Shown here one piece after another: positions 40,290-49,888 of a stretch of DNA of 64,000 nt. The stretch is from assembly GCA_964523885.1 (NCBI GenBank), contig CAZFYX010000039.1, forward strand, positions 169,427 to 233,426, given 5' to 3'. Under the pieces are notes generated by a model, which was not told the DNA's origin, made no database searches, and saw only the letters and a program-made list of their open reading frames with translations. The stretch comes from an uncultured Burkholderiales bacterium (GTDB lineage Bacteria > Pseudomonadota > Gammaproteobacteria > Burkholderiales > SHXO01). The first letter of the stretch is position 1. Each line of letters opens with the position of its first letter. Position numbers and translations under genes: made by a program.

Positions 40290-41606
40290 TCAGTTCAGCA
40301 GCGCCGCCGGCAGCCAGGTCGCAATCCCCGGCAGCAGCATGACCAGCACCAGCATCGCCAGGCCCATAAGCACGTAGGGCAACACCGCGTGGAAGATCTG
40401 GCCCATGGTGATCTGCTTCGGCGCCACGCCGCGCATCGTGAACAGCAGCATGCCGAACGGCGGCGTGAGCAGGCCCAGCTGCATGCAGATCAGATACATC
40501 ACCCCGAACCACAGCGGATCGAAGCCGAAGTGCTGCACCAGCGGCATGTAGAACGGCAGCGTGATGAGCATCATGCTGACCTGGTCGATGAAGCAGCCCA
40601 GCACCAGCAGGATGCCCATCATGCCGAGCAGCACACCCCAGGGCGGCAGCGCCGCATCCTGCACCAGTGCAACCAGGCCGTTGGTGGCGCCCGAGAAGGA
40701 CAGCACCTGCGAGAAGGTGGTGGCGCCGACGATGATGAACAGGATCACGCCGGAGATCGCCGCGGTGCCCAGAAGGGACTTCATCAGGCTGTCGAAGGTA
40801 AGCGCCCGGTAGGCCACGGCCACGACCAGCGTGGCGAGCGCGCCGAGCGCGGCCGACTCGGTCGGCGTCGCCCAGCCGGCCGACATCGCCATCACCACGG
40901 CGACGAAGATCAGCACCAGCGGCGTGACGTGCACCAGGAGGGGCCGCCAGCGCGCCCAGCCGCGCGCGCGCTCCTGCTCGAACGCAGGCGCGAGTGCCGG
41001 ATCCAGCCGTGCGCGCGTGACGATGTAGGCGACGAACATCAGCGAGAGCAGGATGCCGGGCACCACCCCCGCGATCAGCAGGCCGGCGATGGAGATGCCG
41101 GCGAGGCTGCCCAGCAGCACCGTCAATGCCGAGGGCGGGATGAGCATGTCCACCCCGCCGATGGCCATGATCGGACCCATCGCCATCGACGGGTGGTAGC
41201 CACGCTTGAGCATCTGCGGCAGCAGCAGGCTGCCCAGCAGTGCGGTGGTCGCGACCGTCGATCCGGAGATGGCCGAGAACACCGTGCCGGCCACGATCGC
41301 GATCACCGCGAGCCTTCCCGGCACCTTCCAGATCACGTTGTCGAAGGCGTCAATCGCCCGCATGGCGATGCCGGTGTGGAACAGCACCTCGCCCATCAGC
41401 ACGAAGAACGGGATCGGGGTGAGCGAGAAGTTGGTGATCGAGGCCACGCCGTTGCGCACCACCTGCATCAGCCCGGCCTCACCGCCGAGGAAGAACACCG
41501 CGCCGACCAGGTTGATGGCGAGGAACGCGAAGGCGGCCGGCACCCCGACCAGCAGCAGCACGGTGAGCAGCCCGAACAGCAGGCCGAGGGTCTCCCACCA
41601 CTCCAT
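40290..41606 (-). CDS. dctM: TRAP transporter large permease
   Basis: PIPFFVLMGE, FSAISGSTVA, LIPPS and GLLTPPFG. Confidence 0.93.
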   Translation of the reverse strand: MEWWETLGLLFGLLTVLLLVGVPAAFAFLAINLVGAVFFLGGEAGLMQVVRNGVASITNFSLTPIPFFVLMGEVLFHTGIAMRAIDAFDNVIWKVPGRLAVIAIVAGTVFSAISGSTVATTALLGSLLLPQMLKRGYHPSMAMGPIMAIGGVDMLIPPSALTVLLGSLAGISIAGLLIAGVVPGILLSLMFVAYIVTRARLDPALAPAFEQERARGWARWRPLLVHVTPLVLIFVAVVMAMSAGWATPTESAALGALATLVVAVAYRALTFDSLMKSLLGTAAISGVILFIIVGATTFSQVLSFSGATNGLVALVQDAALPPWGVLLGMMGILLVLGCFIDQVSMMLITLPFYMPLVQHFGFDPLWFGVMYLICMQLGLLTPPFGMLLFTMRGVAPKQITMGQIFHAVLPYVLMGLAMLVLVMLLPGIATWLPAALLN

Positions 41607-41607
41607 C

Positions 41608-42108
41608 TCAGCGGGTCTCTTCCTCGAGCCCCGCGACCACCGGCGCGGCGTGACCGCCCGGCCGCAGCAGCCGGCGCAGGCACTCGACCGCCAGCAGCCC
41701 GAAGCACAGTGGCACCGGCACGAACAGCCACCACTCGGGGAACACCAGGCTCTTGATGACCAGGGCGCCGGACTCGCGGGCGTCGAGAATGACGGCAACG
41801 GCGTACCAGGCGATCACTGCGCTGACGACCAGTCCGAACCCCGCGGCGATCCGATCGATCACCGCCATGCGTGCCGGCGACAGCGTGGCGCCCAGGATGT
41901 CCAGGCGGATGTGCTCGTTGCGGTACATCAGCCAGGGCGCCGCGAGGAAGGTCGCCAGCGGCAGCATGTACTCGGTGATCTCGACGATCCACGGTAGGCT
42001 GTGAGCACCGAGGTTGCGCAGGATGACGTCGTAGCAGACCAGCAGGACGACCAGCCCGAGCAGGATCGCGGCGGCGGCGCCGCAGGCGTTGATGAGGCGG
42101 GGGTACAT
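41608..42108 (-). CDS. dctQ: TRAP transporter small permease
   Basis: Four TM helices, EHIRLD and position between dctP and dctM. Confidence 0.9.
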   Translation of the reverse strand: MYPRLINACGAAAAILLGLVVLLVCYDVILRNLGAHSLPWIVEITEYMLPLATFLAAPWLMYRNEHIRLDILGATLSPARMAVIDRIAAGFGLVVSAVIAWYAVAVILDARESGALVIKSLVFPEWWLFVPVPLCFGLLAVECLRRLLRPGGHAAPVVAGLEEETR

Positions 42109-42115
42109 TCGTATC

Positions 42116-42205
42116 AGGCTCCAGGCTCTAGGCGCTAGACGCCAGAGGCTTTGCTGCAGCGCTGCGCGCAGCGCCCGACATCTGGCGTCTGGAGCCTGGG
42201 GCCTA
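42116..42205. repeat. REP-like palindrome with 7-bp periodic arms (family B, copy 2)
   Basis: aggctccaggctctaggcgctagacgccag ... ctggcgtctggagcctggggccta; shares the loop motif gcgcgcagcg with 1713-1805. Confidence 0.8.
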
Positions 42206-48987: not shown

Positions 48988-49010
48988 GGTCGGTTGTCGT
49001 GGCAGAGCCG

Positions 49011-49096
49011 GACCCATCCCCATCCCGCCCCTCCCCTTGCAGGGGCGGGAGTCCTTCCTTTCCCTTCACGGGGGGAGAAAGGAGGGGGATCGGTTC
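49011..49096. repeat. composite family A-like palindrome between cyclase and iorA
   Basis: gacccatccccatcccgcccctccccttgcaggggcggga...ggagggggatcggttc; shares its start with 43210. Confidence 0.72.
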
Positions 49097-49108
49097 CTCA
49101 CTCACAGG

Positions 49109-49888
49109 TCACGCTTCCACCAGCGCCAGCACCCGCAGCGGACTCCCGGAGCCGTTGCGGATCTTCAGCGGCGCAGCGATCACCACGGCGCCGGTGGGGG
49201 GAAGCTGGTCCAGGTTGGCCAGGCACTGCAGGCCATGGCGCCCGGCACCGTGCATGAAATAGTGGCACGGATAGGGCGGCCGCAGATGATACCCCTGCCC
49301 GGCGTCGGTGCCGATCGCCTCGGACCCGAAACCGAGCACGTCGCGCTCGCAGATCAGGAACTGCACCACCCCGGCATCCGGCCCCGGCGTGTGCTGGCCG
49401 GTCTCGTCGTAGTTCTGGTACGCCTCCGGATCGGTGCGCTTGCTCCAGTCGGTGCGCATCAGCAGCCACGCACGGGGCGGGATGCGACCGTGCTGCGCCT
49501 CCCACGCCTTCACGTGTTCCACGGTGAGCAGGAAATCGGGGTCGGCAGCCGCTTCCTGCGAGCAGTCGATGACGCATGCGGGCCCGACGAAATCCCTCAC
49601 CGCGATGGTGTCGGTGGCATTGTTGGGGAGGTCGCGCCCCGAGATCCAGTGGATCGGCGCATCGAAGTGGGTGCCGGTGTGCTCGCCGCAGGAGAAGTTG
49701 TTCCAGTACCAGCCCGGCCCGCGCTCGTCGTAGCGCGAGATCTCCTCGATCCGGAACGGCAGGCACTGCCCCATCTCGGGCGGCAGCGAGATCTGCGGGA
49801 AGTCCGGCGCGAGGGTCTGGGTCAGGTCGACGATGCGGATGCGGCCGGCCGCAAGGGCCGTCGTCAGTTGCGTCAGCAGGGCAGCCAA
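49109..49888 (-). CDS. metal-dependent cyclase family hydrolase (isatin hydrolase / kynurenine formamidase-like)
   Basis: EHTGTHFDAPIHW (HxGTHxDxPxH) and PLKIRNGSGSPLRVLA; TTG start. Confidence 0.92.
   Translation of the reverse strand: MAALLTQLTTALAAGRIRIVDLTQTLAPDFPQISLPPEMGQCLPFRIEEISRYDERGPGWYWNNFSCGEHTGTHFDAPIHWISGRDLPNNATDTIAVRDFVGPACVIDCSQEAAADPDFLLTVEHVKAWEAQHGRIPPRAWLLMRTDWSKRTDPEAYQNYDETGQHTPGPDAGVVQFLICERDVLGFGSEAIGTDAGQGYHLRPPYPCHYFMHGAGRHGLQCLANLDQLPPTGAVVIAAPLKIRNGSGSPLRVLALVEA

Follow-up and report, generated by a model that had tools for sequence, protein, structure and literature searches.

A compact iad-type gene cluster with a TRAP importer and a free-standing V4R protein in an uncultured Burkholderiales bacterium

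Introduction

Root-associated Variovorax and their relatives remove auxin chiefly through the iad locus, and in this way protect root growth. Here we describe a related set of genes in a 64 kb stretch of DNA from an uncultured Burkholderiales bacterium (contig CAZFYX010000039.1 of assembly GCA_964523885.1); the whole stretch is referred to as the window, and positions are numbered along it. At 40290-49888 it carries eight genes, for a cyclase-family hydrolase, the two subunits of an IorA/IorB-type oxidoreductase, a V4R protein, a Rieske oxygenase alpha subunit and a tripartite ATP-independent periplasmic (TRAP) importer. We tentatively propose that these genes form a compact iad-family operon of Burkholderiales, which would take an auxin-related indole acid from uptake via isatin and isatinate to the level of anthranilate. 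Each protein family, and the locus type, is already known. The compact set of uncharacterised iad components, the coupling to a TRAP system, the beta-less IadD2-type alpha subunit and its V4R partner all appear to be undescribed; an initial annotation, made from the sequence alone, had not recognised the architecture, and we found no paper describing it.

The best described relative is the locus of V. paradoxus CL14, which has the order iadR-A-B-C-D-E-F-G-H-I-J-K2-K3-D2-E2-K-L-M-N-F2-J2-J3-R2 and is preceded by genes for an opine dehydrogenase and a 3-hydroxyacyl-CoA dehydrogenase (PMC9613470). In the same work iadA and iadB were designated 'exclusive markers' of iad operons, and IadD2 is named in its Supplementary Table 1 (Conway 2022, PMC9613470). 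Nine genes, iadC-K2, suffice to convert indole-3-acetic acid (IAA) to anthranilate (bioRxiv 10.1101/2025.10.25.684584). The IAA pocket of the oxygenase IadD is formed by N210, L211, F251, H311, K322, R329 and Y362 (PMC10374108), and an isatin hydrolase from Labrenzia, LaIHA, has been characterised biochemically (PMC6117287).

Gene content and order of the cluster

All eight genes are intact open reading frames (ORFs) on the minus strand with the codon bias of the host (G+C at third codon positions 0.85-0.93; G+C of the window ~69%), and Pfam assignments give the order cyclase, IorA, IorB, V4R, Rieske alpha, DctP, DctQ, DctM, in agreement with the initial annotation. The third-position G+C profile shows minus-strand coding unbroken from ~50970 down to 39113, a range that takes in one further gene on either side:

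49943..50968, minus strand: DUF808 (YedI-like) membrane protein (Pfam DUF808, E 2e-111)
49109..49888, minus strand: isatin hydrolase, IadI-type cyclase-family Mn hydrolase (Pfam Cyclase, E 4e-40)
46849..49023, minus strand: IorA / IadA-type 2-oxoacid:ferredoxin oxidoreductase alpha subunit (Pfam TPP_enzyme_C)
45117..46697, minus strand: IorB / IadB-type subunit (Pfam POR (gamma domain) and DUF6537)
44611..45120, minus strand: stand-alone V4R protein, 169 aa (Pfam V4R)
43334..44614, minus strand: IadD2-type Rieske oxygenase alpha subunit, 426 aa, GTG start (Pfam Rieske and Ring_hydroxyl_A)
42203..43186, minus strand: TRAP solute-binding protein DctP (Pfam DctP)
41608..42108, minus strand: TRAP small membrane subunit DctQ (Pfam DctQ, E 5e-25)
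40290..41603, minus strand: TRAP large membrane subunit DctM (Pfam DctM, E 3e-78; TIGR00786 above cut-off)
39113..40285, minus strand: Bcr/CflA-type major facilitator superfamily (MFS) transporter (TIGR00710, 345 bits)

Judged from homologues, the true start of IorA is probably 48987. The 4-nt overlaps noted in the initial annotation at the IorB/V4R and V4R/alpha junctions are real, and both read GTGA, with a GTG start over a TGA stop. The DUF808 gene is co-directional with the cluster, 55 nt upstream of the cyclase gene, and could head the transcript, although whether it belongs to the operon is uncertain. The MFS gene, also co-directional, starts 4 nt after DctM, and both flanking genes may be co-transcribed with the eight. 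An Rfam scan of the window gave zero matches, and a promoter/terminator consensus scan performed no better than on shuffled sequence.

For comparison we fetched related loci and contigs, labelled L001-L096. The identical eight-gene order, with the same flanks and the same two GTGA-type overlaps, is found in the Joint Genome Institute (JGI) contig L082 (19.5 kb), whose proteins are 63-94% identical to those of the window and which has a DUF808 fragment, 73% identical, at the same place. The order from IorB onward is kept in two further JGI contigs, and contigs of equal length among the matches to V4R, DctP and the alpha subunit suggest two more with the window-type order. Contigs of the window type include the JGI contig Ga0436465_0003183. 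Since independent metagenome contigs whose proteins are 60-94% identical show the same order, the arrangement is not a matter of chance.

Isatin hydrolase, Rieske oxygenase and IorAB

By sequence comparison, the product of the first gene can be assigned with confidence as an isatin hydrolase and orthologue of IadI. It matches LaIHA, isatin hydrolase A of Labrenzia (PDB 5nna), at E 3e-113 with ~67% identity over the full length; identity to V. paradoxus IadI reaches 78%, and to the cyclase of the iad-like operon in L089 87%. The Mn-binding HxGTHxDxPxH motif, which the initial annotation had associated with isatin hydrolase within the cyclase family, is present at residues 70-80 as HTGTHFDAPIH, and the sequence reveals no detectable difference from the isatin hydrolases LaIHA and RsIHA (PDB 5nna, 5nnb, 5nmp).

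The Rieske alpha subunit matches the solved Variovorax IadD structures (PDB 7yls/9o71) at E 1e-153 (HMMER); the next PDB matches, phenylpropionate and biphenyl dioxygenases, follow at E ~1e-39 or weaker. V. paradoxus contig L096, which shows the exact iad order and whose first alpha subunit is 93% identical to crystallised IadD, supplied the reference for IadD2: the window protein is 62% identical to IadD2 versus 52% to IadD. The second Rieske pair of L096, iadD2/iadE2, lies at 10001-11778, after two binding-protein genes and next to iadK3; we found no function assigned to this pair. Neighbour-joining (NJ) trees of tblastn-derived alpha sequences from ~30 loci separate a clade A holding IadD from a clade B (99.5% NJ bootstrap) that holds V. 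paradoxus IadD2 and the window alpha subunit, which by these comparisons is of IadD2 type, in a sister clade of canonical IadD. Hundreds of clade-B proteins (from Variovorax, Rhodoferax and metagenome-assembled genomes) are 61-66% identical to it, and the closest in the species-representative genome collection reaches 64%; alpha subunits at least 79% identical form eight clusters only, all metagenomic. The proteins of the window themselves were found solely on short ENA/Logan contigs.

The fold and metal ligands are those of the IadD/IadE-IadC system (PDB 7yls, 8h2t, 9o71), with the Rieske motif CxH-x17-CxxH at residue 78, conserved equivalents of the iron-site residues H216, H221 and D377, and all Fe-S and Fe ligands kept. 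Five of the seven pocket residues (N210, F251, K322, R329 and Y362) are also kept, giving N-I-F-Q-K-R-Y. The differences lie in the sister-clade position, the changes L211I and H311Q, and the lack of a beta or reductase gene alongside. L211 is replaced by I or V, and H311, in IadD the residue shifting on IAA binding, by Q in every clade-B member. Tree and pocket residues (I211, Q311) together rule out a canonical IadD. A reading as anthranilate dioxygenase is likewise rejected (138 bits for AntA against a cut-off of 672, 111 for AndAc against 750), as are benzoate and phenylpropionate dioxygenases, whose equivalog scores fall far below cut-offs. The variant indole-ring or anthranilate-type pathway proposed in the initial annotation thus holds as to its link with iad genes, seen in the IadI, IorAB and alpha matches, and finds no support as to the anthranilate-type oxygenase; the tree proposed there for comparison with IadD places the protein among iad relatives, just outside the canonical IadD clade.

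IorA has the GDG-x26-N motif for thiamine pyrophosphate (TPP) and a ferredoxin-like C-terminal region, with seven Cys in its last 100 residues. The IorA/IorB pair resembles indolepyruvate:ferredoxin oxidoreductase (IOR) as a two-subunit TPP/[4Fe-4S] 2-oxoacid oxidoreductase of the kind that converts aryl 2-oxoacids to acyl-CoA; the phenylglyoxylate:acceptor oxidoreductase of Azoarcus is another such enzyme. The window pair differs from IOR in that the beta subunit carries DUF6537 and IorA stays below the cut-off of the equivalog model TIGR03336 IOR_alpha (277 bits, cut-off 651). IorB exceeds that of NCBIfam PRK08312 (682 bits, cut-off 348), with all IOR_beta equivalogs far below their cut-offs. 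IorA is 66-81% identical, and IorB 50-59%, to the proteins encoded ahead of the oxygenase in canonical iad loci (L005, L007, L017, L021 and L086), rising to 90% and 77%, respectively, when L082 is included. In at least nine related loci the IorA-IorB pair immediately precedes the gene for the oxygenase alpha subunit. The iad marker pair iadA/iadB is therefore present in the window as IorA/IorB-type genes by Pfam, NCBIfam and identity to the pairs of iad loci. Together with the 78% identity to IadI and the alpha match at E 1e-153, these identities bear out the connection to iad loci that the initial annotation had drawn from IorA/IorB and the Rieske gene.

Related loci and comparison with the iad locus

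Five layouts can be distinguished among the related loci. Layout 1, the window type, reads (DUF808)-cyclase-IorA-IorB-V4R-alpha-DctPQM-(MFS), then a HAD gene on the opposite strand. Layout 2 (L089/L090) consists of an opine dehydrogenase, a 3-hydroxyacyl-CoA dehydrogenase (3HCDH), a clade-A alpha subunit, beta, CoA ligase, thiolase-like protein, DUF35/short-chain dehydrogenase (SDR), cyclase and DctPQM. In layout 3 (L007, L086, L092/93) the order (opine dehydrogenase, 3HCDH), DctPQM, V4R, clade-B alpha with or without beta abuts a canonical iad locus, with MarR beside it in L007 and L086. Layout 4 (L094) is the DctPQM-V4R-alpha module of clade B with beta and MarR and no further iad genes, and layout 5 (L091) has DctPQM-MFS-HAD with the same downstream flank, catabolic genes being absent. 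The search for V4R plus TRAP synteny suggested in the initial annotation thus yields the full order in L082, part of it in two JGI contigs, and modules abutting iad loci. The family of every gene, the conservation of order and the recurrent iad linkage are established.

The opine-dehydrogenase-like and 3HCDH-like genes recur directly upstream of the DctPQM-V4R-IadD2 modules and of the L089 operon (L092 4992-7057, L094 5007-7071, L089 355-2420, L086 4968-7087, L007 2-532). In CL14 their counterparts are genes 77/76, which border the iad region, and the window type is without them.

What the window shares with the CL14 iad locus (also found in Achromobacter and Bradyrhizobium) is iadI (78%), the iadA/iadB-type pair and iadD2 (62%), and the predicted chemistry would end at the same anthranilate level. 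It differs in having no iadR, iadC, iadD/E, iadE2, iadF, iadG, iadH, iadJ or ABC transporter, so that of iadC-K2 only iadI is present; the order is rearranged with iadI first, and only the second oxygenase type occurs. The replacement of the ABC system by a TRAP importer and the addition of V4R, both proposed in the initial annotation, are confirmed.

The initial annotation had also reported no beta subunit, reductase, CoA ligase or MarR gene, and this stands. Across all genes called in the window, Pfam detects neither a beta subunit nor a reductase or ferredoxin, and no gene for a CoA ligase, a thiolase-like protein, DUF35/SDR or MarR; there is no match to Ring_hydroxyl_B, Fer2 or NAD_binding, and no sigma-54 activator was found. 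Queries from related loci for IadE, IadE2, IadF, IadG, IadH, IadJ, an IadC-like reductase and MarR gave no tblastn match in the window, V. paradoxus IadF (CoA ligase), IadG (thiolase-like), IadH (DUF35/SDR) and IadJ (SDR) giving none at E <= 1e-3. Neither approach thus found a hidden beta, reductase or CoA ligase gene elsewhere in the window. As for the repressor IadR, MarR2 tblastn was negative, and the only MarR-like helix-turn-helix (HTH) match in the window is an Lrp/AsnC regulator at 16540-17076. Between alpha and DctP, where the gap is 148 nt, there is no IadE2 homologue, and beta is also absent after the alpha gene in L082, L007a, L086a and L005.

Proposed pathway

Our preferred reading, which remains tentative, is as follows. 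DctPQM would import an auxin-related indole carboxylic acid, and the IadD2-type alpha subunit, working with the coupled V4R protein, would oxidise the C2=C3 bond of the pyrrole ring, V4R binding the aromatic substrate or a reactive intermediate. The isatin-level product would be opened to isatinate (2-aminophenylglyoxylate) by the IadI-type isatin hydrolase, and the IadA/IadB-type oxidoreductase would carry out an oxidative decarboxylation of isatinate to 2-aminobenzoyl-CoA, at the anthranilate level. The substrate, the order of the reactions, the role of V4R and the substrate of IorAB are what we infer from the gene families and their arrangement.

The IAA-pocket residues of IadD that the alpha subunit keeps lead us to expect an indole acid close to IAA. 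The genes for side-chain removal (CoA ligase, thiolase-like/DUF35 aldolase pair, SDR) are absent, and hence the substrate either needs no such removal or these steps are supplied elsewhere in the genome, in which case they would come together with the reductase and perhaps the beta subunit. Indole-3-carboxylate is the simplest candidate for a substrate of the first kind, as its CO2 could be released when C2=C3 is oxygenated; it binds Variovorax IadR with a Kd of 4.6 uM (PMC9613470).

Isatinate is an aryl-2-oxoacid, and the two genes that follow the hydrolase gene encode an aryl-2-oxoacid:ferredoxin oxidoreductase of the IOR family, which makes its oxidative decarboxylation the obvious chemistry. 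The literature searched held no description of isatinate as a substrate of this family, and no relevant paper was found linking isatin hydrolase with IOR or describing isatinate decarboxylation. Compounds with the formulae of isatinate (C8H7NO3) and 2-aminobenzaldehyde (C7H7NO) strongly accumulate only in Variovorax carrying iadC-K2 without iadAB (bioRxiv 10.1101/2025.10.25.684584). Action of IorAB on isatinate fits both this build-up and the fact that IorAB always adjoins the oxygenase in iad loci; the build-up is consistent with it and no proof.

Several observations weigh against the proposed pathway, whose support is drawn from gene content and sequence comparison. A Rieske oxygenase needs an electron donor, and neither a donor nor a beta subunit is encoded in the window; IadD2-type alpha subunits are normally paired with a beta subunit (Variovorax, L001, L002, L004, L092, L094). 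No regulator gene adjoins the cluster. DctP is ~58% identical over its full length to Bpro_4736 of Polaromonas sp. JS666 (PDB 4mnc/4mni), a member of the same subfamily and the nearest TRAP binding protein with a solved structure, and the 4mnc ligand, which we take to be benzoylformate, is a 2-oxoacid and not indole-acetate; the genomic context here differs in pointing to indole acids. IadAB is dispensable for anthranilate formation in Variovorax (bioRxiv 10.1101/2025.10.25.684584). Finally, a second CoA ligase and SDRs are encoded along with IadD2 in Variovorax (PMC9613470), hinting at a substrate with a side chain, and the window has no genes to remove one.

Somewhat unlikely, in our judgement, is that the genes form a dependent accessory module, which would work only with a full iad locus elsewhere in the genome supplying IadE/E2, IadC and IadF-J. 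The substrate would then be IAA or its plant catabolite oxindole-3-acetic acid (oxIAA), as for IadD2 in Variovorax, and the module would add TRAP uptake and lower-pathway capacity. Such dependence would account for the beta, reductase and side-chain genes that are missing here and present with the same alpha clade elsewhere; TRAP-V4R-IadD2 is physically attached to a full iad locus in L007, L086 and L092, and IadK3, encoded beside Variovorax IadD2, binds oxIAA weakly and not IAA (PMC10374108). However, the isatin hydrolase and IorAB of the module would duplicate those of the full locus, neither the 64 kb window nor the 19.5 kb of L082 holds any other iad gene, and the close relative L089 keeps the full pathway in a single operon.

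The V4R protein

The AlphaFold2 model of the V4R protein has a predicted local distance difference test (pLDDT) score of 94.5, and structurally it comes closest, within the PDB, to the complete phenol-sensing domains of PoxR, MopR and DmpR (Foldseek; TM 0.79, probability 1.00). The likeness to these sensor (A) domains (PDB 5kbe, 5frw, 6iy8) covers the whole domain and includes an identical zinc spacing, C-x22-E-x2-C-x7-C; the ligands C123, E146, C149 and C157, like the GWGxW and SPF motifs, are invariant in 47 homologues. The protein differs from them in being only ~20% identical and in standing as a single domain, with no AAA+ or HTH part, inside a catabolic operon. Among the 150 best representatives of the family, nearly all have a length of 90-230 aa. 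Searching 1.84 billion representatives with a profile yielded 112 clusters at E <= 1e-30, or 342 at E <= 1e-10, almost all of them free-standing proteins of 160-190 residues.

Each of the 12 contexts examined has an oxygenase gene either adjoining the V4R homologue or no more than one operon's length away. V4R is followed directly by an IadD2-type alpha gene in eight of these contexts, often with a 4-nt overlap, and in the window the GTGA overlaps couple it translationally to both IorB and alpha. Two contexts place V4R homologues (~45-48% identical) between luciferase-like and nitronate monooxygenase genes (L084/L085 9060-11570), and in two more V4R converges on a luciferase-like gene and comes after genes for a CoA ligase, a thiolase-like protein and DUF35; the copy in L087 (1760-6454) has flavin oxygenases for neighbours. 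These varied neighbours indicate that the family accompanies several oxygenase types. A general role as substitute for a missing beta subunit is ruled out, since V4R is followed by both alpha and beta in L092/93 and L094; coexisting as it does with both MarR and beta, V4R replaces neither in general. The most economical view seems to be that V4R would be a small-molecule-binding partner of oxygenases, acting in substrate delivery or in the protection of a reactive intermediate. We found no relevant paper linking V4R with Rieske enzymes, and none reporting a function for the free-standing family.

It is unlikely, we think, that V4R serves instead as a regulator, a free sensor reporting an effector to a transcription factor or transporter in place of the missing MarR, a role that would be compatible with any reading of the pathway. 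The only structural relatives of known function are effector-sensing domains of sigma-54 activators, the window cluster has no adjacent regulator, and an Achromobacter homologue is encoded next to a GntR gene and divergently from an ABC-alpha-beta operon. Set against this, V4R coexists with a MarR gene by the module in L007, L086 and L094 and so is no MarR substitute, its gene is usually embedded in the operon with a 4-nt overlap with the oxygenase gene, as is typical of stoichiometric partners, and a sigma-54 activator is lacking in the window.

Electron supply

Of the loci fetched for comparison, only L086 and the edge of V. paradoxus L096 showed an IadC-like reductase gene within 10 kb of the oxygenase, which indicates that the electron donor for many iad-like oxygenases is not encoded locally. 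A speculative and improbable scheme for the window is that the alpha subunit needs neither a beta subunit nor an NAD(P)H reductase dedicated to it, V4R passing on the substrate or an indoxyl or epoxide intermediate, and electrons coming from IorAB as it oxidises isatinate. If true, this would render the pathway redox-self-priming. The scheme fits, with no proof in either case, the recurrent IorA-IorB-(V4R)-alpha adjacency, including two beta-less lineages (the window/L082 group and L005), and the lack of an IadC-like reductase in nearly all related loci fetched. The reductase is also absent from related loci that have no IorAB (L001, L002, L004, L089), so the comparison does not inform on IorAB as donor.

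The TRAP importer and its MFS neighbour

DctP, DctQ and DctM are all encoded together by Pfam, and the NCBIfam models TRAP_S1 and dctM score above cut-offs. The window DctP is 87% identical to the DctP that closes the complete iad-like operon in L089/L090 (80-87% across DctPQM). This recurring linkage across related layouts indicates that the TRAP system has been recruited repeatedly to iad-type pathways. DctPQM-MFS is also found in L082 and in L091, the latter having no catabolic genes: the MFS gene travels with the TRAP genes and not with the catabolic ones. At 8459-14906 L091 has DctPQM-MFS-HAD, followed by the flank also seen in the window (TPR, S11 peptidase, DUF3617, PrkA), with no cyclase-IorAB-V4R-alpha block; an alginate-export-like porin gene precedes DctP. 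Its absence from L091 marks the catabolic block as a unit of gain or loss, and it looks like an insertion beside a resident TRAP-MFS unit.

That L091 holds the TRAP-MFS unit with no iad gene at all is one ground for a different, quite improbable route, in which the importer would take up an arylglyoxylate or arylpyruvate (phenylglyoxylate, indole-3-glyoxylate, indole-3-pyruvate or isatinate). IorAB, which belongs to the indolepyruvate:ferredoxin oxidoreductase family, would then be the first enzyme and form an aroyl- or arylacetyl-CoA, while the Rieske/V4R proteins and the hydrolase would act on separate, freely diffusing indoles. Benzoylformate as the ligand of 4mnc/4mni, the solved binding protein closest to DctP (~58% identity), also speaks for this route. 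Against this, the 87% identical DctP of L089/L090 ends an IAA-type operon without IorAB, the alpha subunit retains the carboxylate-side pocket residues of IadD, and the tight IorB-V4R-alpha coupling argues for one pathway.

Palindromic elements and surrounding genes

The three larger intergenic gaps of the cluster hold elements resembling repetitive extragenic palindromes (REP) or miniature inverted-repeat transposable elements (MITE):

49000..49105, no strand: REP/MITE-like palindromic element, cyclase/IorA gap (repeats D7, D10, I2; fold -61.6 kcal/mol, z -3.5)
46695..46820, no strand: REP/MITE-like palindromic element, IorA/IorB gap (inverted repeat I1; fold -81.1 kcal/mol, z -6.8)
43200..43320, no strand: REP/MITE-like palindromic element, alpha/DctP gap (repeats D7, D10, I3; fold -73.2 kcal/mol, z -5.8)

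The elements are ~100 nt long and mutually related, with ends GACCCATCCCC...GGGGGATGGGTTC and two CCCCTTnAAGGGG hairpins. Their core motif has 8 matches in the window versus 0.5 expected, 7 of the 8 in the alpha/DctP and cyclase/IorA gaps; the IorA/IorB copy is more diverged and was detected as an inverted repeat. L082 is without these elements, and its IorA/IorB gap is 1 nt. They may stabilise or segment the mRNA. Although these insertions in three gaps and the missing essential-looking partners (beta, reductase) could suggest that a larger iad locus is decaying here and that what is left of it has no function, we consider this very improbable, given eight intact ORFs with host codon bias, conserved catalytic and metal-binding residues, and an order and overlapping start/stop codons kept across contigs diverged to 60-80% identity.

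Downstream of the cluster, a PrkA - DUF444 (YeaH-like) - SpoVR-like operon (31223-36239, minus strand) is the same neighbour as in L082 and L091. The ~1.9 kb between PrkA and the HAD hydrolase (36240-38175) has very high G+C and overlapping long ORFs on both strands, for which there was no Pfam or NCBIfam match; the L082 counterpart is a 364-aa gene, also with no Pfam match. On the other side, a 766-aa protein with multihaem cytochrome c motifs and C-terminal TPR repeats (51662-53962) is encoded after a divergently transcribed rhomboid gene (50893-51633). Two paralogous DUF1254/DUF1214 proteins (55090-56568 and 61705-63240) have as neighbours a DUF3313 protein, an AraC-type regulator (54004-55014) and a PAS histidine kinase with a LuxR-type response regulator (56651-59655). 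At the start of the window, positions 3-2876 encode another, unrelated 2-oxoacid:ferredoxin oxidoreductase (KorA-like POR and POR_N, KorB-like TPP subunit).

Implications

The operon represents a natural minimal set of the least-understood iad parts (IadA/IadB and the IadD2 type) together with an isatin hydrolase and an importer. Because it keeps exactly these components, it offers a direct test bed for whether IadAB is the isatinate-consuming step and for what IadD2 oxidises. It also points to a family of small, free-standing proteins with the V4R sensor fold that are encoded beside oxygenase genes and often overlap them. TRAP-coupled iad-like operons of this kind could widen the sequence signatures usable to recognise auxin degraders in metagenomes.

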